Below, piece by piece: positions 1 through 60,870 of a stretch of DNA of 64,000 nucleotides. Source of the DNA: Schmidtea polychroa. Lineage: Eukaryota. The position numbers and the translations under genes are program-made. The notes under the pieces are model-generated. The model ran no database searches, had not been told where the DNA came from, and worked only from the letters and a program-made list of their open reading frames with translations. Where the stretch lies: positions 264,120,001 to 264,184,000 of the forward strand of contig CM097885.1 of NCBI GenBank assembly GCA_044892525.1, in the 5' to 3' direction. How positions within the stretch are numbered: position 1 is the stretch's first letter; each line of letters opens with the position of its first letter.

Positions 1-2
1 TG

Positions 3-817
3 TCATCTAATGATTTTCCTTGTAGTTGTAGATGGAATGGGGTTTCGTATGCTAGTTTCTTTTTCAATTCTCTGATTTTTGTGGTTGGGTGTACCTCTAC
101 TTCCTCTACATTTTTAATTCGAATTCGATATCTTTCTTGGGTGTCTTGTGACCATTCATGGTTTCGCCACTTCCCAATGATTTGTTCCAATTGTTCCGGG
201 TACCATTCGTTGTATTGTCGGTATTCCTCTATAGTCTTTACTATCTCTCTCAGATACTGGATATTGTCCGATATTTTTAGGATGAAATTGGCTAGTGCTA
301 TCGTTTGCCTTTTTTGATTCTTTGTCCCCGTCTCTAAGATGTCGCTTAGTTGTTTGTATCTTTCTCTTTCTTCTCGATCTCTCGCTTCTTTTGCCTCTTC
401 ACCGTCTATGTCGGCGTACTCGCGTTCCTTCTTTCTCATCGTATGAATATGCCTGATTTCGGTTTCACTTTCTGACGTAACATCCGTTTCGCTTTCGTCG
501 TCCGATATCGATTCTATTTCGTCCTCTTCGTATTTTGGAGGTTCATCTTCCTCTTCTTCTGATTCACTTTCTGTCTCACCAATGTCTGTTTCTACGAAAA
601 TCCCTTTCCTGATTTCCCATTCTTTGTTTTCCGCATTCCACATCCTTTCCCATGGGGTTCGTCTGCAGGATCTAGTACTCAGTTTCTTTATTTTTCCTTG
701 AAGCTCTTTTTCTTTTAGCCACTGTTGATGAATTTCAATTATCTCTACTGATTTTTGGTATAACGTTTTCATCCTGTCTCTTATTTCTTTCTGGTATGTT
801 ACATCTCTTGTTCGGAA
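3..817 (-). pseudogene. Further decayed continuation of the polyprotein (acidic tract, coiled coil), one frameshift near 390
   Basis: Hand translation after the TAA at 818 stays open in the same frame (FRTRDVTYQKEIRDRMK...ESEEEDEPPKYEEDE...). It then shifts to EIEKKEKRYKQLSDILETG...YPEQLEQIIGKW. Confidence 0.6.
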
Positions 818-1549
818 TTAGTCCATGGGCAATATTCTGATGATTTGATGATTATCCCACATTCCCATTTCACTTAACGAGGTATCGTCTTCAGCCCGTA
901 ATATTATTTTATCGTACATCATGACTACATCATCTATCATCCCGTCGCTACTCTCGCTTCGTACTTTTTCCGTTATCTCTCGGTTTATCTTTGTTACTAA
1001 GTCATCCACCGTACTCTGATTACTCATCTTTATTCGTCGTTTCTCCTCGTTTGGTAGCCATATGGTTATTTCCAATTTCTGCGGTTGCGTTTCTTTTAAT
1101 CTTCCGTATTTGTGGATCAAATTTATGGTTCTCCAATCGCTCATTCGGAGCAATTCTGTATCTCGCAGTCGGCTCATTAGTTCATGCATATCTGGAGTTC
1201 GTCTTGCTATGAGCAAATCCCAGTTATCTTCGACTTGTTCTTGAATTTGTTTGATTAGTTTATCTAGATTCCGCCTTAAAGTGCATTGTTTTATTTGTTC
1301 CAATTTCAGCTTGATATTGAAATCGTATTCAGCCTTGGCGTCTTTAGCCCATTCATGAACATTAGCTGGTTGCTTCTCTTTATGCAACTTCAATATTTGA
1401 GTTTCTCCTGGCCAGATCAATGCATCTATTAGGTGCATGTCTGGTTTGATTTGTTCTCCTTGATATTGATACAGATATTCTTTCTTTCTTGAATTACCCA
1501 AATGTTCTCTTATCCAATCGAAAAGATCGTCTGTGACTGTATTTTTTAT
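818..1549 (-). pseudogene. In-frame continuation of the Gag polyprotein beyond a single TAG; contains two ubiquitin-like segments
   Basis: Same frame as 1550..3598 (ERI*IKNTVTDDLFDWIREHLGNSR...). UBL-like patterns YQYQGEQIKPDMHLIDALIWPGETQILKL and ITIWLPNEEKRRIKMSNQSTVDDLVTKI...DDTSLSEMGMWDNHQIIRIL. Confidence 0.7.
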
Positions 1550-3598
1550 CTATATTCTCTCGAGTCCTTTACTCGTTCCGATTTTTATTACGTAGCGTGT
1601 TGTCTCCGCTTGTTTCATTTTTTCCATATACTTCTTTATTATCGCTTTCTCCTCGCTTGGTATTAAATCTTTTTCGTTTCTTTCCAGTTTCATTATCTTT
1701 TGTATGAAACGTCTGTATGGTATGATGTCAATGAAATCCTGGTTTCTTACCACCACTGGAAGTATTTCTTTTACTTGTTTTATCGCTTCTTCTTTTTCCT
1801 TTCTCAGTTTCATCTCGATATTCTCATCTTCACTTTCGCTTGTCACATCGCTTTCACTTTCATCCTCATCTTCTCCGATCTTTTTCTTTAGTTGTTCGAT
1901 ATTTTCATTTAACTGTAATATTTCTCCACCGAGGCTACTCACATAATCCTCCTCGTCATCTGTTGACAATACCTTCTTTGTCGTCCTCATCATGTTAATT
2001 CGTAAATTTCTCATTCTTGATACTTTCTTGAGCTTTTTATTCCCAAATATCGTTAATTCTTCCGATTCTAATTCTTGTACCATTTCATGGGTTAAATGAC
2101 TAGTTTGTTTCTCGTTTCCGTCATTTATCGCTTCTGCTTCTGTTTTTGTTTTCTCATGTTCTCTTTCGATCTTATCTTTTATCTTTTTCCAAAATATTTT
2201 CTGGATTCTCTGATTTCCCTTTAACGGTGTTGTTGGGCTTTCCTTTTTGGTTTCTATAATTGTTTCTTTCAGTTTCTCTGGTTCGATCATAGGTACAACT
2301 CTTGGATTTTTACCGTAATTGTAACAATATTGCTCTTTTATCTCCTTTACCATTCTCATCATATTTATTCGTAATGGTTGTTCTTGTCGCTGCTGAATTC
2401 GCTCTCTTTTTATTCTCTCTTCCTCAGCTTGTAGTCTCTGCCATTCGTGTGCATGTTGTTGCACTTCATAATTGTTAAGATTCTCGGTGCTCCTCATCAT
2501 GCGTATATTCTGGGTTTGTTGTGGTACTTGTTCTTGTCTCGGTCTCATTATTTGTTGCATCATCTGCTTCATTTGTGAAATTTCTTGCATCACATTCATT
2601 TGTTTTCCCTCACTGGGGTTACTTTGTCGTTGCGGATTTGGTGCATAATTATTATTTCGCTGTGGTGGTCGTTGTTGTTGGCCCCTTTCTCGACAGTCTC
2701 TTGAGATGTGACCTGGTTGACCACAGTTAAAACATCCTCTCAATTGACATATATTTTCCGTGTGTCCTCGTCGTCCGCATCTATTACAATTTGCGTTTCG
2801 GTAACAATCTCTATCCCAATGTCCTGGTTTACCGCATGTTCGGCATTGTTTGTTATCGTTCGTATTTCGTCGATTATTACAATTATTTCCATTGTTCGAG
2901 TTGTTGCGTTCACTGTTATTCCCGTTTGATCGTCCTTGCGGTGGTTTGAAAATTTGGTGCGCACCTGGTATGAACTGATTCATCTTGGGTTCATGATTGT
3001 TGTTATCTCCATTTTCTGTTTTCACCGTAGCTGCTGCGATTCTTCCCTCCTCCTGCATGACATTCATTTGTGCCGGGAGGTGTAGTTCGCATCTTGTGGC
3101 CCAATCTATGGCCTCTTCTAGTGTTTTACACATCTGACATCCCACCGAGGCTCTTACCTCTTCCCGGCGTAGTCCTTCTATGAAATAACCAATTAGATTT
3201 TCCTCCGGCAAGTTTCCGTTCATGGCCTTCTTTGCCAATCTTCGCAATTCGCTTGCGTATAACGTTATTGATTCATTTGCTCTTTGTTTTCTACTCGCTA
3301 ATTCTCCTAGGGCTTGATTTATTGGTTTGCTGGCCCCGAATGTTTTTCTCAAAAATGTTTTGATGGTTTCCCAATTGTCTAATTTCGTATTTCTTTCTTT
3401 TGCTTCTAGATACACTTCGAGTGCGCTATCGCACAAAAACAGAGGCATTCGTTTGCTAATTGCTTCCGCTGTCCATCCGCACACATCGATATAGACTTCA
3501 AAATTTGTTATGAACGTTGCCAACTTGTTCGCATTCCCGTTAAACGGTTCGCCTCTAAATTTTTCTTTATACTCGTCGGTTTTTACCACATTCGTCAT
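1550..3598 (-). CDS. gag: Gag-like polyprotein (retrotransposon capsid-like region, three CCHC zinc knuckles, long charged C-terminal extension)
   Basis: CRTCGKPGHWDRDC, CNRCGRRGHTENIC and CFNCGQPGHISRDC knuckles; N-terminal EPFNG..KLATFITNFE capsid-like region. The frame is open upstream to a TAA at 3919-3921. Confidence 0.9.
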   Translation of the reverse strand: MTNVVKTDEYKEKFRGEPFNGNANKLATFITNFEVYIDVCGWTAEAISKRMPLFLCDSALEVYLEAKERNTKLDNWETIKTFLRKTFGASKPINQALGELASRKQRANESITLYASELRRLAKKAMNGNLPEENLIGYFIEGLRREEVRASVGCQMCKTLEEAIDWATRCELHLPAQMNVMQEEGRIAAATVKTENGDNNNHEPKMNQFIPGAHQIFKPPQGRSNGNNSERNNSNNGNNCNNRRNTNDNKQCRTCGKPGHWDRDCYRNANCNRCGRRGHTENICQLRGCFNCGQPGHISRDCRERGQQQRPPQRNNNYAPNPQRQSNPSEGKQMNVMQEISQMKQMMQQIMRPRQEQVPQQTQNIRMMRSTENLNNYEVQQHAHEWQRLQAEEERIKRERIQQRQEQPLRINMMRMVKEIKEQYCYNYGKNPRVVPMIEPEKLKETIIETKKESPTTPLKGNQRIQKIFWKKIKDKIEREHEKTKTEAEAINDGNEKQTSHLTHEMVQELESEELTIFGNKKLKKVSRMRNLRINMMRTTKKVLSTDDEEDYVSSLGGEILQLNENIEQLKKKIGEDEDESESDVTSESEDENIEMKLRKEKEEAIKQVKEILPVVVRNQDFIDIIPYRRFIQKIMKLERNEKDLIPSEEKAIIKKYMEKMKQAETTRYVIKIGTSKGLERI

Positions 3599-4602: not shown

Positions 4603-4862
4603 TTGGGATCCCCTTTAATTAATTAATTACCTTCCTTTTTACTCGTCATTTATTCCCACTTATTCTCTACTTTTACTATCTCCTCAATTCATTTTCCTTT
4701 TCCGATTCTCCTTTTCTACTAAAAGGGTTTTGCTTTCATCTTCTATGAGCTCGTTTAATCCTTTCTAAATTCGACTTCTCGTATCCCAATTCAATTCGTT
4801 TCTAGCTAGCTTAATATTCTATCTCATTATCAACTTAAATACTATCCAATCATTTTCTAGGC

Positions 4863-5390
4863 CTTTACGACTGGCTGGCACTTTTCAACAGCTCAATCTT
4901 CTTCCTTCTGACCGGTTGGACTATTCGACAACTCGATCTTACGACTGGCTGGCACTATTCAACAGCTCAATCTTCTTCCTTCTGACCGGTTGGACTATTC
5001 GACAACTCGATCTTACGACTGGCTGGCACTATTCAACAGCTCAATCTTCTTCCTTCTGACCGGTTGGACTATTCGACAACTCGATCTTACGACTGGCTGG
5101 CACTATTCAACAGCTCAATCTTCTTCCTTCCGACCGGTTGGACTATTCGACAACTCGATCTTACGACTGGCTGGCACTATTCAACAGCTCAATCTTCTTC
5201 CTTTCGACCGGTTGGACTATTCGACAACTCGATCTTACGACTGGCTGGCACTATTCAACAGCTCAATCTTCTTCCTCTCCAAACTGGCTGGACTTTTCAC
5301 AGCTCAGTTCTAATTTCCCTGACTGGCTGGACTTTTCACAGCTCAGTTCTAACTTCCCTGACTGGCTGGACTATTCAACAGCTCGGCCTT
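4863..5390. repeat. Tandem array: ~5.6 copies of a 74-bp unit (two ~37-bp subunits) followed by ~3 copies of a related 39-bp unit
   Basis: Unit cttacgactggctggcactattcaacagctcaatcttcttccttctgaccggttggactattcgacaactcgat; period 74 also shown by ORF starts 4990/5064/5138. Confidence 0.97.
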
Positions 5391-5970: not shown

Positions 5971-6450
5971 TTAACTGAAGTAAATCGTGTGCTTCTCCTT
6001 TATTGCACATACACATAAAGAACAATGCGTTAAACTGACGGCGCATTCGTCGCAATGGCTAAGGTGTCCACAAGGTAGAATTAGAATTCTGGCAGGTCGC
6101 GTCTTACAAATGTTACAAGTTCTCAAGGCCGCTGCTTTTTCTATTATCGAGGTTCGTATTCTCTGAGACAGAGTTTTTACTTGTTCGCGTATTCTCACAT
6201 ATTCGAGGTTCAGAGCGGGGTCGTCGAGTCGTTGCTGCATCCATTGGTAATGGACAGACAAGTCGGTGTTGGTATTTGTTGATCCCAATCTGTCGGTTAG
6301 AAAGTTTTGTTTGGATATCAGCGGTGCGTTGTGGCGTTGTTGCTCTAAGAGTTCTATTTGTTTCAGTTTCTCTTTTAATGTCTTTATTGAGTCGTTTTCT
6401 ATATCGATGAATCTGCTTAGCTGTTGTAGATGTTTCCTAGCTTCTGACAT
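5971..6450 (-). CDS. Coiled-coil plus C-terminal IAP/MDM2-type C3HC4 RING finger protein (no BIR domain seen); probably a spliced terminal exon
   Basis: CNICKTRPARILILPCGHLSHCDECAVSLTHCSLCVCAIKEKHTIYFS* at the extreme C-terminus; acceptor-like ttttttttAG|AT immediately before the ATG. Confidence 0.85.
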   Translation of the reverse strand: MSEARKHLQQLSRFIDIENDSIKTLKEKLKQIELLEQQRHNAPLISKQNFLTDRLGSTNTNTDLSVHYQWMQQRLDDPALNLEYVRIREQVKTLSQRIRTSIIEKAAALRTCNICKTRPARILILPCGHLSHCDECAVSLTHCSLCVCAIKEKHTIYFS

Positions 6451-6917
6451 ATCTAAAAAAAATGTGTTGTTATTATTTGTTTTTACTGGTATTACTAATG
6501 ATTTTATTATGTTTGTAGTTAATATCCGTTTGGCTTTTATTTGTTACTTTTTCTAACTTTTGTATTTTATTTCATCTTCGTAATTCCTCCGTCATATTTT
6601 CCACTTTAATGATTTACTTTTATTGTCATTACGTTCTTTCGTCTCCCTTTTTTAATTTAATAATTTAAAATTAAACATGGTAACTAATTCCCGTTTTCTT
6701 TTCTCATCATACTCTATCCTATTCATTTATACTCATTTAGGTTCGTTTTTATTCATAACATGCTCCATTTCAAACACAAACAGTTCGTATCATCATTCTA
6801 TTGCACTATAATATCGATTCATTTCAGTCCCGATTCCATTTTTTATTATAATTAATTAAATTGTTAGTCTAACACATCGTAATACAATAATAGGCAATCA
6901 AACAATTCGAAATCAGA

Positions 6918-6935
6918 ATCCCGGCTGAGCCCCCA
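6918..6935 (-). promoter_or_regulatory. Primer-binding site, tRNA-Pro-like
   Basis: TGGGGGCTCAGCCGGGAT, 16/18 identical to the canonical tRNA-Pro PBS TGGGGGCTCGTCCGGGAT; starts 7 nt after ...GCCAACA. Confidence 0.8.
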
Positions 6936-7481
6936 AAAATCATGTTGGCATATGTGGGGAAAAGGAAATTATTGCACACACCATCATCTCACACACCCTG
7001 CATCATTACTCCGCTCAGATACTCCCCATACATACACCAAATGATCATGTACATATTCCCACGCATGGGCCCGTGGTGATGTTCCACGTTGGTGCTGCCA
7101 ACACGGGTTGGAAAAGGTTAGCAGGTGAGCCTCTGCCTTAAGACTACTCCTAACCCTTCTCGGTACGGGTTCTACGGTGCCTTAGAAGGTCTTACCCCTT
7201 GCTTCACACGAAATCCAGTCTGACCCTGGTCCGAAGGGACGACATTTAAGTTCGTAGCATATCTTCAGAAGTACCTTTCACTTAAATAAGTCACAGCAAT
7301 CCATGCATACTAGGGACAAAATGCAAGGATTTGAACAGTTATATTGAACAACAAAACCACAAAGAAATACCTTTATCATTAAATAAATAAGCACAAAACA
7401 TCAACGGGCGTATATAGGATAACGTCACTTCTTCGAGTTTTCTTATGCTGCACGAAAATATTTAACCACTGGAAGGGGTCA

Positions 7482-8220
7482 TTACGGAAACCCTTCGCCT
7501 TCCGCGATCATCGCGTCGATGTCGACGGGCAATCGGTGGTCGGACATATACTTAATACCTTCTGCTGGAATTATGCGAAAGATTTCCTTAGATGGAACGG
7601 AATGGTTGGAGGATATTTCTTTTATGGTAGACTGAGCCACCGATAGGGACGCCTCGAGAGCAGCCATCGCGTCTCGGCGTTTCTGATTTTTCTCGGCTCT
7701 GGTCGGCCGTTTCCGTTTGCGGGACGACGGGGGGTTTTCAGTGTGCGGGGTGACGACGGGTGCCACCAGAATTGGATGCAAGATGGGGTCGGTAGGTCCA
7801 CCTACCACAGGTTGAGATGGGCGGTAGGCACGATCCATGCCCTTGACAGCTCGTAGTAGTTGGTTTGGATACTTGGTGATGAAGAGGGAAAACGTTCGTT
7901 TTCTCTATGACGGGGAATTCCCGTACCCGCTTGGCTAGCTCTGCCTCCGTGTATACCTTGTGGAGGGCTTCTGATTGGGCTTTGATTGTAAGCCGTTGGC
8001 ATCGGCTTTCCTCCAGCAAGCTATCTCTACAATGTTCTAACCGGAGGATTTTCTTTCGTTCCTCCTTCATTTGTGGCGGGGAGAACCACGTACCCTCATA
8101 GAGGTCAATTCTCTTCTTTAGAGCCCCGATGTATAGATGGAGCTGCGCGATATCTGCATTTTTATCGGCGCAGGAGAAACAAGGACGAGGAATTTTTTCA
8201 GAGCTGGTCGAGGTATTCAT
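7482..8220 (-). pseudogene. Unknown coiled-coil / basic-Pro-rich protein inside the LTR, split into two overlapping frames (160 aa and 118 aa)
   Basis: ORFs 7738..8220 and 7482..7838 overlap in different frames; acceptor ttttaatctttAG precedes 8220; locally higher GC; NLS-like RKRKRPTR. Confidence 0.5.
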
Positions 8221-8759
8221 CTAAAGATTAAAAGAAAAATTTATTGTCGATCGTAAAAGTTTTTCTGGAACGTTATTTGCATTTCGCATATGAGATTCAC
8301 AAGTTTCCAAATCAAACTATTCAATGGTGATCTACACACCCGTGTCGTTGATCGATACTCGCATTCATTCAAACCCAAACATTCAAGTTAACTCACTCGT
8401 TCTTTACAATTTTATGAGAGGAAAACGGGAATTTTAGACAGAATTCATTTATTATAGTTTCATCAATCGGTATAATTTTGCGGGCTTGACCCCCCCCCCC
8501 CTTCATATGTTCCATCGTTCGAGTACCATAACCTTTAACACCATTAATATATTTCTTATTGTCCAATATTGATAAGTCTACTCCTCATTACTAAGTTCTA
8601 TGAAGTTAAGTTTGTATAAATAACAAAAATTTCGGCCTTGCTTCTTTGCATTATTTTAATATTAATCGAAATTGAAAAGGAAATCATAATATATATGTTT
8701 ATTTGAACTTTGAACGTGAATTGAAAATTTTATTTAGTTCAAATTTTTGCCGTGAGGTT

Positions 8760-10264
8760 GTCATGACGACTCTAACACAGTATGTGGTTGTGACTAAATA
8801 CTGTCATTTACTTGAGTGCTGAATATGATGTGTTGCAATGCATGCTTGTGTATTGTCAATTTCTACTATTCTGTTGACCACTATGTCTTGGTGTGTCTGG
8901 TTCGGATTATGTTTTCGAGAGTGGCTGTCTAATACTCCTAGCAAAATTATTTACGGGGATACGATCTCCCCTGACGTCCCTGCACGCAATGCTACTATCT
9001 CGTTTAACTTCGTCATTGTTATGTAATGATTAGGTCACCGAACAAATTTTCTTTTTATGTGGATTGGTTGGCGGCATACTGAGAGGGAATTCCATGTGAC
9101 GTGCTGGTAGGCATGTATTATCAAGATCCGGACTCTTAGAAATCTCTACCCGATTCGTTATGCGTGTCAGCCTTACCCATTACGCGACAAATCACTGGAG
9201 AATTGGAGCTGATAATTTATCTACTATCGTGGTCGACTTCAGATATCCGTCTGTCAATGCTCTCACTGTATCTATGGTGATGACGGTTATCGCTCTCTCT
9301 CACTGTTCAGATTCCCTTTAGTCATCTAATTCGGTTGGGTATAATCAGACTGAAATCCATTTGGCAGTTATCTGATAACTTCGACAACGGCTTCCCTCGC
9401 CTCTATCGTAAGTGTTCTGATAATTTCTCAGGATTTATTTACTCTATTTTCAGAAAAACAATCCTTATCCATAGCCTAAGAATCAACAATTCACTTAAAA
9501 GTGCACCGATGATGGATTTTGTCGTTAACTCCTTAGCGATCCAAATCCCTACCGAAAAACTTGGTGACAGTCTGTGCTAATCTCGTTGGAATTTTCTGTT
9601 TGCAACCGAAGACTATGATCCCTTCGTGTTCAGCCCACCGTAACTCGGGGACTTAAGACGTAACGATGTCGAGCCTGGACTTAACAAAATATGATTATGC
9701 CTAATATTAAAGAATTGTATTTCGAATTTCTCCGGCGAATCTCTGTGGATTTGTTTATTCGCCTCAGGTGTCTTAATTTCATCTTCTCCAAAAACAGTAT
9801 TTTCTATGCCGAACACAGACATCGCTCAGTGGAAGAATCCCCCGTGCACTATTAATATCGTCCGCCTGATGTCCTCACCCCTCCTGACCCACCTAAGGAC
9901 GGCAATCATCGCTGCCACCGTCTTTAGACCGCCAGGAAGGACGATTCGATCTCCTCAATTCGTCAATTTCAAAAATTTTTGTAATAATTATGATTAAATA
10001 AATGGCATGGTTTTATAAATTAATCGTTATAATAAAATTTACTTGTCTGGCGACCACGCCGCCTGAGTCTCGAATATGATGCCGTCCCACAATAATCACA
10101 ATTGTTCAATCACCTCTATTGCTATAAATCTAGCTTCATCCCGATTTTCAATGTCACTTCTAGTCGCCATCCTCGTGGCTTCTTCTACGGATTTATTGGA
10201 CTTTCCCGCATCATATTGGATTCCCAGACGACATCGTCGCCAGCACCATAGAGAGAGAGGAACA
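8760..10264 (-). pseudogene. Heavily decayed spliced coding region of unknown family inside the LTR
   Basis: Protein-like stretches broken by stops and shifts (RDEARFIAIEVIEQL*LLWDGIIFE; AAMIAVLRWVRRGEDIRRTILIVHGGFFH*AMSVFG; HQDIVVNRIVEIDNTQACIAT); donor near 10043. Family not recognised. Confidence 0.4.
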
Positions 10265-10609
10265 TCTTTCGAAAATTAAACATTTATTATACTAAAAGAA
10301 TTTATTCAATATCAAACTCATAGAAATATTTAATATCATTATCATAAAAAGCATTTAAATCAATCACCATACTTACCAAATAATATCCTTCGAGAGTGTC
10401 AAAAAATGGTAAATGTTCAGGATTCTACTGAATCGTTTTCCTTTTGGTTCCGCTAGATACTGGTAGTCGATTTTGTTTTCGTTGAATCGTAGTCAAAATG
10501 GTGTTCAAGATGCTGTAGAGTAGCGATTAAAAGTGGTCCTCATAATAAAACAAAAAATTTTTACCTGTAGAGTAGCGATTAAAAGTGGTACTCGACAGAT
10601 TTCTCTCTT

Positions 10610-10640
10610 CCGTTATATACTATTCTTCGTCCAATCAGGA
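10610..10640 (-). promoter_or_regulatory. LTR promoter (inverted CCAAT box plus TATA)
   Basis: CTGATTGG at 10638-10631 and GTATATAA at 10620-10613; same arrangement at 20578-20624. Confidence 0.55.
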
Positions 10641-13469
10641 CGCGCCTTATCTGTGATATTTTTTATTTATTATTATTTAGGTGTTTTTATTGAAATGTGT
10701 TGGGTTTTAATAATTTTTCCTATTTGTATTAATATTTTATTTATTTTAGTATTTTTTTATTATTTTCCTCCCGTTTTCCTGCGCGTTTATTGTCATTTTA
10801 TCGTAATACAATTTTTGTTTTAATTCGCCTATACATTTATTTGAGGATTTCTATTTTATTTTCTTAAATTTCTCGTTTATTTCTTACGTTTTTTGTTATT
10901 TTATGTTTTTTCCTTTTCCTACCATGTGTGTTGGGTAATTTCACCTTATTTCGCCTTATGCATTCTATTGTTTTATTGGTTATTTTTATTTCTTTTATAT
11001 TCTTATTTCTTTTATTGTTATCTGCTTTAGTTATTCCTATATTTCTCGTGATTTTATTGAAAATTTGTTTTATCCTATTTATTCGTTCTTAGCCCAATTT
11101 TCGACACTCTCGAAGTTTAGCCCAACAGTAGTCTGTTTTGAGTTTTGTTGTGGAATGATTGTTCTGACTCGTGATAATATTTATGTTATAAAACTATGAA
11201 CTGAATTTTTGAACAAATATTGCCAAATTGGTGAATGAATGTAGTGATGGTCTTCGTAGTATGGAAACTTCTTGGAAGGTACACTGATAGATGAAGATGT
11301 AATAGTATGAATGATTATATGCATATGATATATAAGAATGTATGGATTAGAGGGTTTATGAAAAAGCAAGCTACATATGATTCTGATATTGAGTTGTCGA
11401 TACATACAGTGTATGATAAGGAATGTTTAAACCAATTATGCTCTACATGTAATACTTTCTACACATACCAAACCAAGGGTAGAGTACCCAAGGGTGTTAA
11501 AAGGCGTCGGTAAAAGGAAAAGATTAAAGCCTAAAAACGATTGAATAAACATTCAAATAAAAAATACGATAAGACTCGACAGATAACAAAGCACCAAACG
11601 TTAAATAAAGCAAATGATAACCATGCCTTAGCTTCTGCAAATGTGAATCTGAGACGAACGACATTAAAGATAAAGATATGAGTTTACCAGACGAAATAGA
11701 GCGAATCAACAGATTCTACTGAAAGTAAAAGAAAGTGAAGACATGGAAAGACATCGAAACATCACGAATAGAAATAATAACTATATATCATCAACACCTA
11801 GAATGAACAAAAGCGTTAAGTAAAAGAAAAAAAACAAGAACTAAACTTGTCTGTAAGATAGATGAAGGGATAAAACTCGCTGGTAACTCGAAAAGTAATA
11901 TGAACCAAAGACAATCGAGAATAACTATTAAAAAAAAATAAAATAAAATAAAATCACAGTATAAAAATGGAGCAAAAAATAAATCGAAATAAAATCTCCG
12001 GGACAAATACACGAGAACTAAGTTAAAGGGCAGTGAAAAACTTTACAAAATAGGCGAACATCACAGACACCAAGGGTACGTAGAAAATGAATTCTAAAAC
12101 TTATGTAAAACGACTCGGGAGAATAACAAATTATATACAGAAATCAATGAAAGTAAATATACAAGGTACGAGAATAACATGATGGATATCAACGAAAAAG
12201 ATCTAGCGAAAGAAACCAGGGAGCTCAAGGTTAGCCAAAGTAAAATGAATATACAAGACAGTTATACATACGATGCTCATATTAATAACCGGAACGAACT
12301 ATGAAAAACTATCCAACGTCAAAGATAGAGAATGAGAAACAATTAGAACCAGACGGGTGAAATATACAGCAAATGAAAGAGTACAGAACACTAAACTAAG
12401 AACAGTGAAAAGAGATCTAGAAAGTATCACGAATTACGAACCCACATACATAGAAAGGGTTATGACTATATATAGTGTGAACAATGAATATATAAAGGTA
12501 TATGATTATATAAAATTATAAGTATATATATCAGCGCGGTATAATTAGTATATAACTTCGGGAAGTAAAATGAAATAAAATTCAGATAAAAGATTATGAA
12601 TCAATATAGGTGAATTAATAGAATGAAACGGATCACAATGGAAATCAATCCCAATACCACCACAGGAGAATTATGGAAGCAGAAAAGCGTCATATTATCG
12701 TAAATAGCATTAGCTATACAGAAGCAAGGAATCTCATGGAGGAACAATCTAATCGAAAATTTGAACAATGAATTTGTTCGTGAGAGAATAATCAAGGACC
12801 AGAGAGGAAAAATTGAACTAAAGTGAAAAGAAATAGAACAACTCTAATGATAAAGTTAAATGCAAGAAATGAACTAATAAGAATAGCTGGGGAAATCAAG
12901 GAGAGAAAGATATGATAAAAATGCAACGGATAATATCAGACGTAAAAAGGAAACGGGAAAAGGAAAATGCAGGGAGCTGAAGATGAAATACAAATAGTTA
13001 TAACAATTACAGCATTATATTCATGGAAAATAGTCATAAAATGAAGCATTCAATATACCGAGATGGAGGTGGAATGAGTAGAAGAACACTTGTACCGGTG
13101 GTTTCTGTTGCGTAAAGGAGAAAAACAACGAACTATTAGCATGGTCATAACATTGAAAAGAGACGGTAATGGCAGAACTGAGTACCAAAAAGAGGACTAA
13201 TTGTATATAAATAATTGCATATATCGGTGTATACACCCCAACCAAAATGATATATAATAAAAGTAGAGGACCGATCACCATAAACAAAGATAAAATAATG
13301 CGAAAAATCAAAAATATTAAAATCTACGCCTATTTAAGAGTAAGGAAAATCAATCAGAAAAAATGGACGTTTGGCAAATATTGTAGAGAGGACACGAGAA
13401 CAAAATACTGAGAACCGAGAGAACACAAGATAATAAATAAATTAAATAATGAATGTCGGGGACGACATT

Positions 13470-13484
13470 TGGCGAAGACGCGGA
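13470..13484 (+). promoter_or_regulatory. Candidate primer-binding site of element 2
   Basis: ...GACGACA tt TGGCGAAGACGCGG: CA end followed by TGGCG. Cognate tRNA not identified. Confidence 0.4.
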
Positions 13485-15155
13485 GGAAAAATGAGATCAA
13501 ACTAAGATAACAACAAACGGGAGATCAAGATGAAAGTCAAAATGGACATGAGCAATAATAAGAACAATCGGGAAAAAGTATACAAAAACATGATTGACAG
13601 AAAATGAAGAGCACACATATAACAAAATAGAATATGAACAAATAAACACAATAAAAAATGACAAGGAAAACACAGAACGAAATGAACAAACATGAAACAA
13701 CAAATAACAAATTCACAGAAGGAAAGCAAGGCCAAAGACATTTGAACGAAAAGGCAAAACAGCGAGAAACGACAAATATAAAATGAAACATGATACAGTG
13801 AAACAGAACAAAAAAAAATTGAAAGCTTAACATCACGACACGGTCAATTAAAATAACAATAGATGCTAACAAAAATGAGATCAATTAGAAATATCGAACA
13901 AAAGTTTAATTAGGGAAAACGAACATACTGCCAACTTTTACTATGGAGCAAAAAGTTACAATAATGAAAAACGAACGGACTGTCTACTTTTATTACGAAC
14001 TATAAAGTTACAATTGTGGGAATTTCAATGATAAATTTGAATAAATTCAGAAATGATGGAAGCAATAATATCAACCACTCCAGGAACAGCTAGGGAGAAA
14101 TGCGTACAGATGTAGATATCCAGATATAGGTGGATATATGTATATGAATATATGTTTATGGATAAGGGTATATGTATAAGTATATGAGTGTATATGTAGA
14201 CATAGATAAACAATTAAATGAGATAATGAAAATAAATGACCAATCAAAGTTACGCGCCAAAAGTAAAATAACAAATAGACGCGGAAATAAGTTAAAAACA
14301 TAAAATATAGGGAGTGGAACAAAGAGGCCCATAAACAGAAAAACAACAAACAAATTTTGAAAACGTAAAATATACGAAATGAGAAACATTATGACGGGGA
14401 AATCAGTGAGGTAACATAAAAAATCAAAGATAAGGAAAATATACTAATACGGAAGCGTGATAAATTACAAAATTGAGCAGGGATGGTTAATAAATAAACC
14501 ATTGACGAATAGAAGGGTAACGAATAAAATGGATAAACAAATATTAACGAGTGATGCGAGAGGGATCTGCCTGAGGAAATAGTGAGCATATTAACGAGAA
14601 ACAAGTTAACTAAAGCGGTAAGAGTAAAAGCGATAGCAATAAGACGTTAACTAGACAAGAGACGTGGACATATTTAGAATAATGAAGAAGGACCAAGAGT
14701 AATCGAGATAAGTAGATTAAGAGCACGACGTAAAAATGAGAATAAAGTCCTACGAAAATTGAGAGCAAATGAATAAGGAAAGATTTTTCTGTTAGGATTT
14801 AGGAAATCCACAACCTATGAGCTACGCTCAGCGTAGTACGGATAAGGCCCAGGAAAGTACCAACTGTCCTGACGAAAGATGTGGAACAGGGCCCATCGCA
14901 TATACTGGAACATCTCTGCGTGTGACTGATCACCACACGATCGGAGATCGACCAGTGCGAGTGTTTCGCATCCGGAGTCAGGAGAGTGGGGAAAACCTGG
15001 AAGAGTAGTAAAAAGAAGCATGTAGGAGAAATAAAAAGAAGACCAAGTAAATGGGAAAAGAGAGAGCGAAGTAAAGAGAAACAATTAGAGCTTAAAGACT
15101 AAATTGATAGATAACCGGTAGGCAGAATGATAGGGACAAGGACAGTCAAAGGGAA

Positions 15156-15434
15156 GCGAATAATAGATGCGAATAATTGATGCGAATAATAGATGCGAAT
15201 AATAGATGCGAATAATAGATGCGAATAATAGATGCGAATAATAGATGCGAATAATAGATGCGAATACTAGATGCGAATAATAGATGCGAATACTAGATGC
15301 GAATAATAGATGCGAATACTAAATGCGAATAATAGATGCGAATAATAGATGCGAATAATAGATACGAATATTAGATACGAATAATAGATGCGAATAATAG
15401 ATGCGAATAATAGATGCGAATAATAGATGCGAAT
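15156..15434 (+). repeat. 13-bp minisatellite (GCGAATAATAGAT) ~21 copies
   Basis: Directly visible; lies between two copies of tccggagtcagg.gagtg.ggaaaacc (from 14980 and from 15434). Confidence 0.97.
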
Positions 15435-15599
15435 CCGGAGTCAGGGGAGTGAGGAAAACCCGTAAGAGCAGTAAAAAACAGGCATGCAGGGGGATAAACG
15501 TTTAGAAAGTGCACAGTAACTAAAGTAAAGACAACAAAAATAGTGAGCCTAGGACAAACGGAGAAATGGAGAATAAAACATGCATGTTAGGGATTATTA

Positions 15600-15820
15600 A
15601 GATCGAGTTGTCGAATAGTCCAACCGGTCAGAAGGAAGAAGATTGAGCTGTTGAATAGTGCCAGCCAGTCGTAAGATCGAGTTGTCGAATAGTCCAACCG
15701 GTCAGAAGGAAGAAGATTGAGCTGTTGAATAGTGCCAGCCAGTCGTAAGATCGAGTTGTCGAATAGTCCAACCGGTCAGAAGGAAGAAGATTGAGCTGTT
15801 GAATAGTGCCAGCCAGTCAT
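15600..15820 (+). repeat. Three copies of the same 74-bp unit as 4863-5280 (reverse complement)
   Basis: gatcgagttgtcgaatagtccaaccggtcagaaggaagaagattgagctgttgaatagtgccagccagtcgtaa is the exact reverse complement of the element 1 unit. Confidence 0.97.
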
Positions 15821-17289
15821 AAAGGCCTAGAAAAGCGAGAGATAGCAGTTAAGCTACAATGAGATAACACATCGAAGCTAAAGTTACAGTAAGATAGAAT
15901 ATTTAAGCTAGCTAGAAACGAATTGGAATTACATATGGGAATTTGAATTTAGAGAGGAAATAAACGAGCTCGTAGAAAAGATAATAAGATTATAGTGGAA
16001 AAGGAAGGGAAAAAAGGAAAATGAATTAAGGAGATAATGAAAATAAAGAATAAGTGTGAATAGATGATGAGTAAAAGAGGAAAATAATTAACTAATTAAA
16101 GGGAATCCCAGGTAAGTAGACAAGGTGCTACAGAATTTTTTTTTGGTTTAAACCGGATAAACGAATCTTGTTTTTGGTTCCAGAGTAGAACCGAGTAAAG
16201 AGTAATAGGTGACTTAGATATAATAGGATAAGTAAAATGGCGAAATTGCGCAAAAGTATACTAGGAAAATGAGGAGGGGTAATTAGCAGCAACGGACAAC
16301 GACCAATTGATATTATAATTGATAATTATAGATAATTGATACGACCCTATAGATAATTGATACGACCACATAGATAATTCAACATCGACGAAAATTTAGG
16401 ATTATGGTTATTCACAACCGACGAAATAGGAATTGTACATCATTCGGAAGTTTCAAAAGTAGAAGCGGACCAGATAATGATTTTTGAAGTTTCAAAAGTA
16501 GAAACGTGGAAATTAAGAATTTCTAATAAGTCTCGAAAGCGGAGACCAATGGGATAAGAATTTTGTTCCAGTTGATTGTTTTGAATGCAGAAACGAACGA
16601 GTTATAAATTTGTAAGGTAAAGAGTGGCAAGTTAAGGAATGATAAGATTGGTAAATTTTGATATATTAGTAGAAATGACAAGAAATGAATTGATATTAGA
16701 TAATCGGGTAAGAGAGAATGAATGAGAATATAAGGAGAATAATGGAAATTCTAGTTAAGAATGAGTTATAGAAATGACAAGGAATGAGTCAAGTACAGAT
16801 GAGAGGCAATACAAGTACAACTGTGAATATGGTTTCAAACTTAAGAAGAGAAACCGCTAAGTAAAACAGTGAACTAAGTCAAGAAAAACGGCAACGATAA
16901 CAATAATAGTTAATGAAAGGAGGAAATATAAAGGGTAACCGCTATAGTAAACTCAAGAAATGATTAAAACTGAAACAACCGAGAACAGAACAAGTACCAT
17001 AGTAATGAAGAAAAACTAAGAGGTAATACAAGTTAATAGATCGAGAGATAGTCATTCAAAGCCAAGAAAACCATAGAAACGAGGAAAAGGAACACAAATT
17101 AAAATAAATAAGGATCGAGAAAATTAAGTAGACCATGTGAATAAAGGTGTAAACTAAGGGAACGAGGGAACAAATATTAAGAGATGCCCAAGGAAACTAA
17201 AACAAAAATATTGCAATTATGTTATATAATATATAAATTATAATTTATAAAGATAATAAACGGTAAGGAGGAGTGATATTTTTCTAGTA

Positions 17290-19790
17290 AGGTAAATCAA
17301 TCAATCAAGATAACAGCCAAGTATCAACAATCAACCAGAATTCAACACCAAATCATTAAGTCAATCGATAAAAGAACCAAGTATGTCAAACGAAGAAGAA
17401 ACGAAAGCTGCAAAGAAAGGAAAACGAACAATCAAATTCAAGCAAACGTAAGAGGGTGAAAAGGAGAAATCAAAGCGGCATCTCAAAAACGGAAAGTTGA
17501 CCCTCAAAATAGAGTGGCAAAAGGAATTGTAAAACAGTTAGTCGAAAAGTTTAAAACGCCAGTGGAACTTCATGAAAGAGGAAATAATGTAAAAGCAGAA
17601 CTAGTAAAAGACACTGAAACCTAACTAAAGAAAGAAACCAACGATGGAGAGATAATATGGATATATGAGCGAACAAGCTAGCTGAGATGCAAAATCAGAC
17701 AACCATCCGTCGAAACTATGCAGTAACATAATCAAGTATCAATCTGAAATAGAAAGAAAGCAACCTCCAATAATAAATGTATTACAATATTTGGAAGCAG
17801 ATCACAAATTGAAAACAACCCAACTAAACAACAACAAGGATGAAACACCTTACAGATCACAAAGGCACGAGAAGCAGAAGAAAGATGGAGTAGACGAAAA
17901 GAACTTCAGGCAAAAAGTGAAGAAGAGTATTGGAGGAGGAGAAAGGAAGAACTGTTGAGAGTTGATATCACTGACAGCCAGAGGGAAAAGATAGAAGAAA
18001 TGTGTGGAAGACAACAAAGAACAGTAATACAAATCAATATGATGAAAGTGGTACCGATCAACAAACGGGAATTACAAAGAACTCTGGACTCAAGAGTGGA
18101 AAGTGAAACAATCGAAAGAATAGAAAATGTAACATTGGACCATCAAAATATCAGAATCATTGAGAACAATCGGAGAAATTATAAAAATACGGAAAATTAG
18201 GCTGATATTACAGCAATCCAAGAGAATCGCATGAGAGCAGTCAACAGAAGATATTGCCACAAATCGAAGATCAACGAAGTCTACGAGAATCGAAATGGTG
18301 AAAATAATGAAAACATCGTGACAGAAGAACGGTAAAAAATGAAAATGAGATTGAACCAAATATCGAAAATAAAGTAAAACAGTATTGTAACCAAGGCCAG
18401 CTGCGAGGACACAATGAGCGTAATTGTTCTTTGAAAATGACGGGTTGGAATTGTCAGAGAATGAGGCATTGCGAGAAGAAATGTCGTCGTACAAAAAAAA
18501 AAAAAAAAAAAGGTGTAAAAACGAATGTAAAAGAACAGGACACGTAATTAACAACGGTCCGAATGTGAAATCCAGAGAAAAATCAATCACGGAGAAGTAC
18601 CGAAGAACCAACCAAGCAAATACGCACTGAGAAAAGAATTCAACAGTCGGAGAGAAAAAATTGTCAACCTCTGATGTCAATAAAATAACAGTCGACAACC
18701 GTACGTAGAAGGGAAGAAACATGTAAAACTCAACGTATCCGAAGAATTGAGAAGACAATGTATAGAACAAGGTAACATAATAAAAGAATTTGTGATGAAA
18801 GAAAAAAGACAGGATGAATTGATAAGGATATGGGGACAAGTTGCCGAAAACAAAACAAAGAAACTGAAGTACAAAAAACAACGATACTCAGACTAAACGA
18901 AGAAGCAAAGTCAGCCGAATTAAGAATCAACAAATTAATGAATAAGCAAGATAAATGCAGAGAAATGGCAGTAGACACAAAAATGATGACGGCAAAGTAA
19001 AGGAAACTGAGGGTATAAAGAGTAAAATAGAAATTAAAGGAGAAGTGTAGATGAAAATAGTAAATAGGAAGTGTACATATGTAAAAAATTGATTTATAAT
19101 GTAGCAAAGGATAGATGTATAAGTAATTAAATAAAAATGGATCAAGTAATCAGTTGGGAAAATACAAAATTTGAACCCCCACAGTGGTAAAGGAGAACAG
19201 AGGCCCAAATGAGAAGAAAGAATATAAATCCAGAAGAAAGATAAAAGTGCAAACCCGGAAAGAATGAGTTAAACGAATATCTAAAAATAATACCTAATTT
19301 GGAAACCCTAAGCGAAGAACGGTAAAAGATCCTGATAAATGAGACGAAAGTCACAGACCCAGTGACATTAGCAACTTAATCAAATCAAGCGAACTTAGAC
19401 CAAAATCGAAAATAATTCGAGTTACCCATTAAAGAAAGAAAATCCCTTAATAAGAGCAATACCGTAAACAAAACCACCAAAGAAAACCAAAAGAAGACTC
19501 AATGTGTCAAATCACCTAGTTAAACAAAAGTTCCGAAGACCCTTGAGCAAGGTCTGTCATATACCATCAAATGATCCAGAAAATCAGAATCCCAGCCTAA
19601 AAATTCAAAGAGAATCCGGGAAAACAGTCAAACCCCGATAGGAAGAATCCTATGATCTTCGGTAAGTATTACGAGCTAATTATGAAAATCAACAACAGGA
19701 GTCAAACATGCCTACAAAACCGAGCCGAAAGATTGAAAACCGAACCCAGAAACGAGAAGAAACAACCAACTGAAGAATTGATCCAGAAAT
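17290..19790 (+). pseudogene. Decayed polyprotein of element 2; capsid and zinc-knuckle part apparently deleted
   Basis: Fragments PPIINVLQY, KAREAEERWSRRKELQ...RTVIQINMMKVV and ELRINKLMNK parallel the post-knuckle region of element 1; many stops and frameshifts. Confidence 0.6.
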
Positions 19791-20039
19791 AAAACTGTTG
19801 CATGTGACTTGACTTGAGTTTGGACATGGTATAAGTATGTATGTGTATTATGACCAGTCACTGTACGTGGCAACTGCTTGAATTTTAGCTTAGACCTTTT
19901 TCTGATAATTCAATTTTAACATGTCTTAAACTGTTATAGTATGTTTATGGGTTAATGGAAATGTAATAGACTATGATCTGCGAAATTCATATGTCTAACA
20001 GAATTGCGGGACGCAATTTTAACGGGTCCCGGAGTGATT

Positions 20040-21451
20040 TGTTGGGCTGAAGCCGAGAACTGAGAGTTTGTTTTAATCGATCGAAAAATACCTAACACAA
20101 AAACCGCAAAGTTGGAAAATTTATGACCAAGGTTTAATTTAAAATAAATGAAATAAATTACATCACACATTAAGAACCAATAAACCCCGTATAATAGAAT
20201 AAGAGATAAATAAATTTAACAAAAAATTCAACACTTAAAAATTTAAATAGAAAAATAATAAAATATAAAATAGAATTAGTTGAAAATTATTTAAACAATA
20301 TAAAAATTAAATCGTCAAAAATAATAAAATTAGTTAGCATTATATAAATTGTAAAGTTTATAGAATTAAATGGTTATTCAACTTATTAAATTTAAAGAAT
20401 AAAAATGTTTAAATTAATAAAAATTAATATAACTCAAATTATTTAAATTATAAAATTTATAAAATTAAAATTAATAAAAATTAAATAAGAAATTAATTAA
20501 ATTTATTGAATTAAAACAAATAAACAATTGCACACACTCATGCATGTATGCAAGACTAATTAAAAATTTCTCGCACTCTGATTGGATAGAGTGGCAGCAA
20601 ATGCATGAAAAATCAGTATAAATACTGATCACAAATTCATTTGAAGGACTACTTTTTCTCTAACATCAAAATTTAGTGGTAGACAGTGAAGCTCTCAGTT
20701 TTCGATTTTATGCCAACGTGGATTTGGTAATTTATTTTTTATTGTTGTAGTAATTTTACGAGATGATTTAATTTAATATGCAATAAAATTTTTAGTTAAA
20801 TTTTCTTTTGTTATTTTCTTTTAATTGTTTAATTTCATTTAGTTGTAGGTATTAAATAATAATTTTTATTGTGCTCAATTTTTATACTAACTGATTACGA
20901 ACGTTAGTACCGCTGAATTGAGATTCAGCATATCATGGTTTGAGGTACCTTCGGGATGCTCAGACTGGTGGGTATGCTGGTTTTTCAATCGCGCCGCTGG
21001 ATTGGGCCGGAATGTGGGGGCTTCCTCACGGGTCCTATCGCTGGAAGTACTGTGGTCAAATGTAGGTTAGGACTGAGAATACAGGCAGATCCCTGCTCAA
21101 ATTTTTTGAAGTATAACGTAAATATTATGGGAAGCGTGGATTAACTTGAAAATAAGGGCCAATCCCTGCTCAAATTTTTCAAAGGATAATTTAGATATTG
21201 TAGGAAGTGTAGAACAATAATTATTAGCTGGAAAATAAGGGCGGATCCCTGCACAAAATTTGATAAGAGAACAATTAGAAATACCCGTAATTGAGGACCA
21301 ACAACGATCCAAAAATAGCATATACAGTGAATAATGACGTAAGACCTTCTATCGGCAGTCTAGAACCCGAAAAGAAAATACAATGGGGAGTAGTTTTAGT
21401 AATAGAGCTCACCTGCTCATTGTTTTTTCGCCTTTGTGTACAGTACCAACA
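20040..21451 (+). mobile_element. Short LTR related to the element 1 LTR (3' end uncertain: 21304 or 21451)
   Basis: Starts TGTTGGGCT; CTGATTGG at 20578 and TATAAATA at 20617; donor ATTTG|GTAA at 20727. 20945-21060 resembles element 1 LTR 7260-7040 (ccttcgg...tcagactgg; cacggg.cc). No matching TSD found. Confidence 0.55.
21090..21270 (+). repeat. Three imperfect ~75-85-bp direct repeats (core gatccctgc.caaattt)
   Basis: Cores at ~21088, ~21162 and ~21244. Confidence 0.7.
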
Positions 21452-22119
21452 TGGTCGTCACCATGGTTACACAAATGGTTTAAAGTTCAATAGTCATGGA
21501 GGTGCTTAGGAAAGAGTCGAACGATTATGATTACCCCTAACGCATTTTAAAATGTAAAAATGATACACCCCTAAGTAACCAACACAGGTTTACCGCGAAA
21601 TGTTTAATTCATTTATTTTGCCGAAATCTTATAAAGGTTGAGAATCACTAACCTAATATGTTTGACAATTATTTCGAACACTACAAACTAATTAAAATTA
21701 TTTCTTCTCTTCCTAATTCTTAAGATGATGATTTGAAGCGTTAAGTGTTTTTTAAACTTTTTCCAATTATATTTCTTTCAATTTCGATCTTTAACTTTGC
21801 AAGAAGAATAATTAACAATATGCCTTAAGTTTATTCATGTTATGCAGATATTCTATTTTTAATGTTTTTAAAGTTTAAAAAAAAAATCAAAGAAAAGTCA
21901 TCAAAAAATAATTGAATCGAGTAGATGTTTGTTTATATATGTTTAATAATTTCTGCTAATTTGAATTTTTTAATATGTAGTTCTTTCTTTTAAATTCCTA
22001 ATGGACAACATAAATAAATTAATAGATTTTTTATCCAAAAATATCCAAACTGAAACAAACAATGTAACACTTGCTGCTCACAGTGAGACAATCTTTCCTT
22101 TTACATCTTCCTCCACTTC

Positions 22120-58671: not shown

Positions 58672-60870
58672 TTATTTTAAATTATTTTCAAAGCTGTAAA
58701 TAATTGTTCGCAATATAATAAAACAAAACATTATTGAAACAGGAATGGCTTCAACATCAATAGTAAATAAATATATTCCTTGGATTTTCATTCTTTCCAC
58801 TTTCGCGTCTTTGTGTGCCAATAAACATTGTGTGCATGTTCCACATGTACTCCTTGGCAACATATCTGCATTTGCATGATCCGTACCTTTCCTCTGCTCT
58901 ATTTTAATAACCAGACTACTGAGGTAATTAATCCATGTCTGAAATTGCGTTGTTATTGGTTTCTTTGTGGATAACATAAACGTGATAGCTTTATGGTCCG
59001 TTCTCAAAATGAACCGTTTTTCATATAAATAATGATTTAAGTGTTGACAAAATTGATTGCCAGCAACTCTTTCCTTGTTATGCAATATCTTTTTTCATGA
59101 TTGCTCATTGCATGAGAACCGTATGCTATAACCTTTTCGCACCTGTTCTCATTTTTCTGTGATAATACTGTTCCAATCGTGTCAAAACTCGCATCAGTAT
59201 CCAGAATGAATTCTCTTTCAAAATCTGGAAACTCTAGGAAAGGTAAGGAAATTAAAGCATTTTTCATATTTTCGAATGCGATGTTGTATCCGTCAGTCCA
59301 AATTAATTTTTTCTGTTTAACCCGCATAGGTCTTTTAAAACTCTTGGCTTTTTTGCGTATTCTTTTATAAATCTTCTGTAGTAATTGCATATTCCTAGAA
59401 AGCTTCTCAGATTCTTAACACATTCTGGCTTTTCAAATGATTTAATTGCGTCTAGTTTTGACGGGTCTGTCTGTATTCCATCTTTGTTGATTATGTGACC
59501 TAAATATTTGACTTCCTCTTTAAGGATATGGCACTTTTTAGGGTTTATTCTAAGACCCGCCTTTCCAATTTTATCCAGCACTTTATTTAAAACTTCGTAG
59601 TGATGATTGATTGTTTCTGTAAATATCAAAATATCGTCTAGGTATACTGCTGCATATCTCGTACCCATTAATACTTTTCCCATCAGTTCCTGAAACGTTT
59701 ACAATGTTTAGTAGTATCGGGTTATTTAACTCTCTTGCGTCGTTTTCTCGACCTCTTCTACTGCCCACTTTAGCTGTATACTAAATTGTTTTTGCAACTC
59801 TATACCACCAATTACCTCTGGAGTCATATATCTTACTATCGTAAACTATTCTCTTCTTTCCTGCCATTTATTCCTATATCTAATATTGCTTTACCCTTCT
59901 TTTCTAAAACACTATTATTTGCACATCTCCATGTATCAGTCGTTGTGGTTAGTTCTAAATCTTTAAGTTTCTCAAATTTGCTCCAACTCATGACATTTAC
60001 TGTAGCTCCTGTATCTAGTAAGCATTCCATATTCTGGTCTTGTATTATAATAGTTACACTTGGTCGGCCTTGCATTTTATCATAACTAATAATATCATTT
60101 TTCCATTCATCTAATGTGAGTATTTGTATTTTGTCTCTTTCTATTTCTGAAAATCCATTAATCCATTAGTCAGCATCGTCGTAATTGTCTTCTTTGTTAT
60201 GCAATCTCTACTCAAATATCCGACCTTGTGACATCTCCAACATTCGTTCTTAGTTCTATTCGGTCTTTCTTCTAGATATTCTCTCGGCTTGCTAGTATAT
60301 CTTGCTGATACCGCTTCTCTGTAACCTCTTGTTATATTCTGTTCTGGCCTTCTTTCTCTCACTGCATAGATCTTTTCTGCAACTATACGAGATTCATGTA
60401 ACTTCTTGATTTTTTTTTCACTTCTGTTGTTCCTTTGGTGTCACTTAGACACAATTCTCATTTCAAAATCTTCTCGGTTGCACAGTGTACCAGCAGATAT
60501 TCTGTTTAACTTATGCCCAAATAATTTATCGATTAACTCGTCTATGATAATAAAATATTTATCCTCTGTAAAACTCGTTTTCTTGACGAATGCCTTCCGC
60601 AATCTTTCCTTATAACATTTGATATTTTGGTCAACTCCAGTATATATCTCTGATCTGTTTATCGATCAGTAATTCGATCATCACTTCTTGTCTTGAAGTA
60701 GGCATTTGTACCACTTTAAAATATTTATCGCATTCTTTTATCTCCTCTATGATAATCGTTTGGAAATAGCTTCTTTATGAAGAATTCCATAGACGTGGTC
60801 GACATATTAGAAGCTGCTAAAACATCTTCTAAATTATTTTTTTAATCCGGTTCAGAAGTTAACGTCATAA
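58672..60870 (-). mobile_element. Decayed Ty3/Gypsy internal region: gag knuckle, protease, partial RT, RNase H
   Basis: CWRCHKVGYLSRDC; LLDTGATVNVM; YAAVYLDDILIF; FILDTDASFDTIGTVLSQ; FILRTDHKAI. Frameshifts, and the RT N-terminal half is deleted near 59700. Confidence 0.92.

Follow-up and report, generated by a model that had tools for sequence, protein, structure and literature searches.

Additional predicted ubiquitin-like domains in the long polyprotein of a Burro-like giant Gypsy retroelement of Schmidtea polychroa

Planarian genomes are rich in Burro elements, which PIWI silences (as set out in PMC8532177), and one of them, Burro1/GYPSM1, is traced in the section text of PMC6431247 to Jurka 2007 and Grohme et al. 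2018. The same text describes a Ubi/SUMO-like motif between the MATH and BCL2 domains and proposed, in 2019, a theme of apoptosis and ubiquitination; no experimental test of this proposal was found in the literature searched. We analysed a stretch of 64,000 nucleotides of the Schmidtea polychroa genome (the window; positions 264,120,001 to 264,184,000 of contig CM097885.1, assembly GCA_044892525.1), in which a gag frame continues into ubiquitin-like (UBL) segments, here called UBL1, UBL2, and UBL3. This stretch is almost certainly part of the single long open reading frame (ORF) of a defective Burro-like giant Gypsy retroelement, interrupted by stops that are specific to this copy. The type of element is already described in planarians, and what is new here is the added domain annotation. 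UBL1 and UBL2 precede the position of MATH and are not in the section text of PMC6431247, whose Figure 2A lies outside this comparison. No other description of them was found in the literature searched, a scope that excludes figures, Repbase, subscription papers, supplements, and the 2018 genome paper.

The window element and Burro1/GYPSM1, as the latter is presented in the section text of PMC6431247, have much in common: a length of about 30 kb with long terminal repeats (LTRs), one ORF of about 4,800 amino acids (aa), three CCHC knuckles, a BCL2-like domain (a candidate in the window's family) preceded by a Ubi/SUMO-like domain, an in-frame envelope protein (Env), the series protease, reverse transcriptase (RT), RNase H, and integrase, and ankyrin repeats. 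Several of the features by which the Burro-like group is recognised are found here: long LTRs and a total length of at least about 30 kb, a single ORF of about 4,800–5,100 aa (in sister copies, the window copy itself being broken), Retrotrans_gag at the N-terminus followed by two or three CCHC knuckles, and an in-frame Env between gag and pol followed by protease, RT, RNase H, integrase, and then ankyrin repeats. The identification as a Burro-type Gypsy element in the earlier note on this DNA agrees with size, LTRs, ORF length, and domain order. The mark of Burro1/GYPSM1, a MATH_TRAF_C domain inside ORF1, is absent from the family of the window copy (family A) and present in a second family of the same genome (family B) and in a database protein, P0003. 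Because the family A ORF lacks MATH, we class the window copy as Burro-like and not as Burro1. Its TRAF is, in contrast with Burro1, a separate downstream ORF, which in an open copy encodes a TRAF with RING, zinc finger, and MATH. In the published Dugesia tigrina element MATH lies in an upstream ORF, unlike in family A (section text of PMC6431247). Family B has the Burro1 layout known from that text plus all three UBL units.

The gag frame lies on the minus strand. It runs from 3919 to a TAG at 1550..1552, continues for 243 codons to a TAA at 818..820, and then passes the window edge. The TAG falls inside UBL1 and is unique to the window copy among the loci fetched. The TAA, directly after UBL2, had been missed in the earlier note, which spoke of a single TAG; a further stop and a frameshift interrupt the ORF downstream, outside the window. 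Both stop sites are open in 29 of the 30 nearest loci retrieved, the sole exception being the window's own locus, and the open copies encode one Gag-BCL2-Env-Pol polyprotein of 4,730–4,810 aa. As sister copies are open at both sites, we interpret the stops as decay of the window copy and not as a readthrough device. The 243-aa stretch between the two stops has 819 candidate genomic matches; the 150 that were scored are all 93%–100% identical, and around 65 of these (hand count) lie in frames of at least 4,700 aa.

The full order in the polyprotein is Gag, three CCHC knuckles, UBL1, linker, UBL2, spacer, UBL3, BCL2-like domain, Env, protease, RT, RNase H, integrase, and ankyrin repeats. The capsid region carries Retrotrans_gag at 3164..3445 (PF03732, E 2.1e-10) and the nucleocapsid three CCHC zinc knuckles at 2690..2848 (PF00098, E 1.8e-10, with two stretches passing and the third read from the sequence), all on the minus strand. 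The two segments noted earlier are indeed in one frame with Gag (both E-values round to 2e-10), and open natural copies keep them in that frame, so that the observation withstands the refuting conditions set in the earlier note. They are not adjacent, as the word tandem had implied: a linker of 100 aa, predicted to be helical, separates them (1085..1384, minus strand; low-confidence model helices at 91-142 and 147-175), and the third UBL-like segment had been overlooked. Likewise, the host protein, taken for a Gag polyprotein, does include Gag, but it is a single Gag-accessory-Env-Pol ORF. In a natural open copy, Pfam recovers Retrotrans_gag, zf-CCHC, Bcl-2 (E 0.011, under the cut-off), Monjiviricetes_fusion (E 2e-73), RVP, RVT_1, RNase H, rve, and Ank. 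The BCL2-like domain before Env (PF00452) remains under the cut-off in family A at this E 0.011 and reaches E 9e-5 in a fourth family, D; HHalign of families A and B against families C and D gives E 4e-5. Neither a dUTPase-like domain between protease and RT nor a BIR was found by Pfam in the family A ORFs.

UBL2 (821..1084, minus strand) is, on structure prediction, a ubiquitin-like beta-grasp domain with a long helix, an acidic loop, and no di-Gly, and we hold this assignment with very high confidence. Its AlphaFold model has a predicted local distance difference test (pLDDT) of 67–86 and the predicted topology beta-beta-alpha-beta-beta-beta, which superposes on ubiquitin-family chains with a root mean square deviation of 2.2–2.8 Å over 73–83 residues at 7%–21% sequence identity. 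Foldseek returned 252 matches with this model and, among the matches listed, all but one have the ubiquitin fold. The top ones include ubiquilin, Dsk2, midnolin, and UBX, within 1 Z unit of SUMO, ISG15, and ubiquitin. Some results weigh against the assignment. Only one of five AlphaFold models reached a mean pLDDT of 53 (the other four gave 38–42), UBL2 scored z 0.4–2.1 against templates without family A and B rows, profiles of UBL1 or UBL2 alone matched no ubiquitin-family chain in the PDB, and phmmer found no ubiquitin chain there for either. The ubiquitin-like fold claimed by the earlier note is firm, by prediction, for UBL2, and likely for UBL1, where profile and feature tests are mixed. 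The predicted UBL2 resembles type II UBLs (ubiquilin/Dsk2/Rad23, UBX, USP11) in being a beta-grasp embedded in a longer protein without di-Gly. It differs from them by its longer helix and acidic insertion and by the identity of 7%–21%, with no family preferred.

UBL1 (1385..1600, minus strand, with the first stop inside) probably adopts the same fold. A whole-domain profile built without UBL1 and UBL2 (custom script, one gap-cost setting) scored UBL1 at z 3.8, 8.7, and 7.4 in three orthologues, with none of 150 shuffles reaching the score in any of them, and with this profile UBL1 and UBL2 outranked every window other than UBL3 in each of the two polyproteins, which had 98 and 91 windows. Templates lacking the family A and B rows gave z 2.4–5.4, with 4.0–5.4 in two of the three orthologues. 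Full-length HHalign yielded P 0.003 over 72 columns, and the Atlas score to Rad60-SLD/ubiquitin clusters was 0.88–0.90, with Rad60-SLD in 22%–36% of cluster members. The elements follow the order strand-strand-helix...strand in the alignment-based model, and strand-strand-helix appears in the single-sequence model too. The competing reading is that UBL1 is not a beta-grasp and that only UBL2 and UBL3 are ubiquitin-like. It draws on a pLDDT mostly under 50, the lack of any Pfam hit or PDB structural match of its own, the failure of local hidden Markov model and HHalign window tests to pick up UBL1, and a z of only 2.4–2.9 in the window's own family under the stricter templates. We regard it as unlikely in view of the order of elements in the models, the HHalign probability, the z of up to 8.7 with its shuffle control, and the stricter scores of the two other orthologues.

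UBL3 is likely a ubiquitin-fold domain. Only its start lies in the window (1..136, minus strand, running off the edge), where it matches the published Ubi2/SUMO-like motif by position, and the window copy has a 12-nt in-frame deletion in the first hairpin. Because only UBL3 sits between MATH and the BCL2-like region in family B, we assign the published motif to this domain. Pfam ubiquitin reaches E 0.02 for UBL3 in an open copy. A profile of UBL3 with the units of families C and D has 90 PDB matches at E<=0.01, and the 60 listed are all ubiquitin, ISG15, Get5, or other ubiquitin-bearing chains; against templates from the C and D units, UBL3 scores z 5.9–8.5, with or without host ubiquitin. It counts against the ubiquitin-like assignments in general that every UBL unit, in all four families, stays below the Pfam cut-off: the best score of a window-family unit is to PI3K_rbd, at 18 of the 22 bits required, and the best to ubiquitin is 19.8 of 25.4 bits (family C). 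The units are 12%–24% identical to host ubiquitin.

Other searches added little. A homologue search of 1.8 billion representatives gave two matches, and a profile homologue search also gave two, one of which was already a member of the alignment. Two single-query homologue searches found nothing, nor did those of metagenome and viral contigs, and an NCBIfam scan yielded nothing useful. One profile search was unusable, being swamped by the MATH domain of P0003. A pooled profile of 12 units matches ubiquitin structures; its signal persists without UBL1 and UBL2, and we do not count it for them. We also set aside a single-sequence AlphaFold model of the window stretch (pLDDT 34; nothing by Foldseek at E<=0.001). 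The idea of a "helical bundle plus UBL" module repeated across families found no support save in C1/C2 and one UBL3 match at E 0.001.

The arrangement recurs in related elements. Family B encodes 4,791 aa, is 54%–57% identical to P0003 over the UBL region, and places UBL1 at aa 791-866, UBL2 at 966-1054, MATH at about 1179-1328, and UBL3 at 1452-1522 before the BCL2-like region. In family A, UBL2 and UBL3 are separated, where MATH would lie, by a spacer that is acidic and helical (137..817, minus strand). Families C (3,334 aa) and D also bear env and have two UBL-like units each before the BCL2-like domain. In all four env-bearing families examined, the region from the nucleocapsid to the BCL2-like domain therefore holds two or three UBL-like units. 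The family C stretch has 1,980 candidate genomic matches. The ratio of nonsynonymous to synonymous substitution rates (dN/dS) between two subfamilies (dS near 1) is 0.04 for UBL1, 0.02 for UBL2, and 0.05 for UBL3. All three are under purifying selection, and so is the whole ORF: with 0.03 in the linker between UBL1 and UBL2, 0.03–0.08 over linkers and a disordered stretch, and 0.01–0.08 everywhere else, the low ratio is not specific to the UBLs. Between families A and B, identity is 40%–43% in the UBLs, 27% in the linker, 51% in Gag, and 61% in Env. The RT of the two families (L034 versus L071/L072) is 91% identical, an unevenness relative to Gag and Env that may reflect recombination or strong constraint. 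Families C and D (L077/L078, L080) are shorter relatives, and the parts of their ORFs that were scanned contain neither MATH nor ankyrin. In a database fragment, P0004, the helix following UBL2 is joined to TRAF-type zinc fingers, hinting at another arrangement or a mis-spliced gene model; a search for a further family with it returned only accessory TRAF matches among the best 150.

The position of the UBLs bears on their possible role. A short motif resembling a protease site recurs in families A and B, P0003, and P0008 at the capsid/nucleocapsid junction, after the nucleocapsid, before UBL1, and before the protease; the last of five in the window, upstream of UBL1, is at 1988..2002 (minus strand), with similar motifs at matching places in family B and the two database proteins. 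The motif is also found after MATH in P0003 and in family B (30 of 30 loci). Cleavage by the element's protease at the motif before UBL1 would free the UBL block from Gag. In family A the hydrophobic leader of Env would end the block, giving a cytosolic, possibly membrane-tethered UBL1-UBL2-UBL3-BCL2-like product; in family B, the motif after MATH would yield a UBL1-UBL2-MATH unit plus UBL3-BCL2. The link to Gag-driven budding through endosomal sorting complexes required for transport (ESCRT), drawn in the earlier note, fits poorly with segments that lie well past the nucleocapsid knuckles and beyond the repeated motifs; if these are protease sites, the release of the block from Gag argues against it.

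The best overall explanation, to which we give an even chance, is that the UBLs are nonconjugated adaptor or docking domains of an accessory protein released by the protease. Their neighbours are TRAF, RING/BIR, BCL2-like, and ankyrin domains, which leads us to propose that the adaptors serve ubiquitin signalling; that they act on ubiquitin-dependent death or immune signalling has close to an even chance. They would bind ubiquitin-signalling partners (TRAF/IAP type), encoded by host or element, and thereby favour the survival or permissiveness of the host cell during element expression, a step that we put forward tentatively, at just short of even. Some observations weigh against the proposal: the evidence for cleavage consists of the motif, the leader before Env passes the cut-off for hydropathy in families C and D and falls short of it in A and B, and family A keeps UBL1-UBL2 without an in-frame MATH.

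A role internal to the element is somewhat unlikely: the UBLs might bind the element's own nucleocapsid or ribonucleoprotein, or chaperone the polyprotein, and take no part in host signalling. The part of PMC9938351 on coronavirus nsp3 offers a precedent, since its Ubl1, a ubiquitin fold in a polyprotein beside an acidic region, is not conjugated and binds a protein, the virus's own N; this is a works-like analogy, and no homology is claimed. Our elements have an acidic stretch before UBL1 and an acidic UBL2 (18 D/E versus 11 K/R), their UBL sequences are far from any host UBL (see the identities to host ubiquitin above), and the units are kept in all four families, including C and D, where the scanned ORFs have no MATH. 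The neighbouring cargo points instead to host signalling, and ordinary Gypsy elements replicate without UBLs.

We find it improbable that the UBLs are degrons or shuttles that deliver the accessory block, or proteins bound to it, to the proteasome or p97, in the manner of Rad23/ubiquilin or UBX. Shuttle-type proteins are among the top structural matches of UBL2, but less than 1 Z unit sets them apart from SUMO, ISG15, and ubiquitin, and the weak Pfam hits to UBX, OTU1_UBXL, and NPL4 span the first hairpin and helix only. The residue aligned with Ile44 of ubiquitin is Met in UBL2 of families A and B and P0003 (from alignment and model, the register being inferred from the latter); it is Tyr in UBL1 and Gln in UBL3, and polar in UBL3 and three of the four C and D units. 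The p97-binding loop motif of UBX is not seen in the UBL2 sequence.

Cleavage by host deubiquitinases behind a UBL, or conjugation of a UBL, is very improbable. Pestivirus polyproteins carry ubiquitin inserts behind which host deubiquitinases cut, and pestivirus polyprotein fragments are among our fold matches; in family B, a Gly-Gly follows shortly past UBL2 in 29 of 30 loci. This Gly-Gly is off the canonical register, however, and the other 11 of the 12 units, among them all three of family A and UBL2 of P0003, have none in the 22 residues next to the last strand. Since di-Gly is lacking in family A, present in 1 of 12 units overall, and there off register, we agree with the earlier note that no unit of the window family ends in di-Gly and that conjugation is unlikely. 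Programmed readthrough of the TAG to set the ratio of Gag to accessory protein, suggested by the frame continuing past it, is refuted by the open copies, the TAG being inside UBL1, absent from 29 of 30 loci, and accompanied in the window copy by two more stops and a frameshift.

Returning to adaptor domains released by the protease, one may speculate, at well below an even chance, that Burro elements carry a self-contained ubiquitin-signalling toolkit. Their protease would set free two products, UBL1-UBL2(-MATH) as a scaffold and UBL3-BCL2 as a membrane anchor, and these, together with the TRAF, IAP-RING, and ankyrin proteins that the element encodes, would redirect host death signalling of the TNF/NF-kB type. 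If so, this would be a retrotransposon with counter-defence in the style of large DNA viruses, its two or three UBLs kept across four divergent families. The present analysis sharpens a known hypothesis and reveals no new system. Its gain consists of two previously unlisted UBL-like domains (one well predicted, one likely) placed in a probable cleavage product, the assignment of the published motif to one domain, and the boundaries of small, separately expressible fragments.

The remaining features concern the element as a whole. It measures about 30.7 kb without a 4.4-kb insertion and 35.1 kb from LTR to LTR with it. The 5' LTR (6943..11127, minus strand) has 4,185 bp and TG...CA ends; the 3' LTR, outside the window, is split by the insertion. 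The two differ at 4 of 4,188 aligned bases, with all 4 mismatches in an aligned block of 3,665 bp and none in another of 523 bp, and from this near-identity we conclude that the element inserted recently. A 4-bp target duplication was read from both flanks of the LTR pair. Between LTR and gag lies an upstream accessory ORF with a C-terminal C3HC4 RING finger (5971..6543, minus strand; PF13920, E 1.6e-8), with a counterpart ORF in the open copy L037; the accessory ORF of family B is a BIR-RING. The 5' leader holds a 74-nt tandem repeat in 6 copies (4791..5350, no strand assigned). For three runs that we presume to be RNA, contigs cover 30, 6, and 20 of 30 bins, from which transcription cannot be shown.

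Several minor observations were made in and around the element. The 4.4-kb insertion (L033:6453-10000 and L032:1-835) contains a microsatellite and an unclassified open frame of 496 aa. Both LTRs of the open copy contain an ORF of about 254 aa (L036:5857-6618, L037:6454-7215), present as two frames in the window copy (7482-8220, minus strand) and without a Pfam match. A primer-binding-site-like stretch at 6918-6935 (minus strand), also present in copy L037, begins 8 nt past the 5' LTR and resembles a tRNA-Pro site; no tRNA gene was found in the window. Within the A-rich 11128-20000, a piece on the opposite strand (about 15596-16400, plus) shares the 74-nt repeat and leader with the element at 78%–99% identity; it has no Gag or UBL match downstream and is possibly a noncoding derivative. 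A stretch of 1,545 bp occurs at 20040-21584 and at L033:987-2531, 99.7% identical and in the same orientation, flanking the element on both sides, perhaps a sign of its nesting within another repeat. Elsewhere in the genome, outside the window, another repeat family (L102-L112, L114, L117-L119) has two near-canonical ubiquitin units ending in di-Gly, in frame with a BEL/Pao-type Gag (DUF1759) and protease. Its frames span about 1,350–1,400 aa, with no RT found and direct repeats 4.4 kb apart, and varying pieces of captured host genes (dual-specificity phosphatase, Ras-family GTPase, chaperonin, proteasome subunit) lie upstream. Towards the far end of the window we found what remains of the RT/RNase H of a different LTR element (59127-59698, minus strand) and an ORF fragment at 63357-63995 (plus strand) that we take to be transposase-like.

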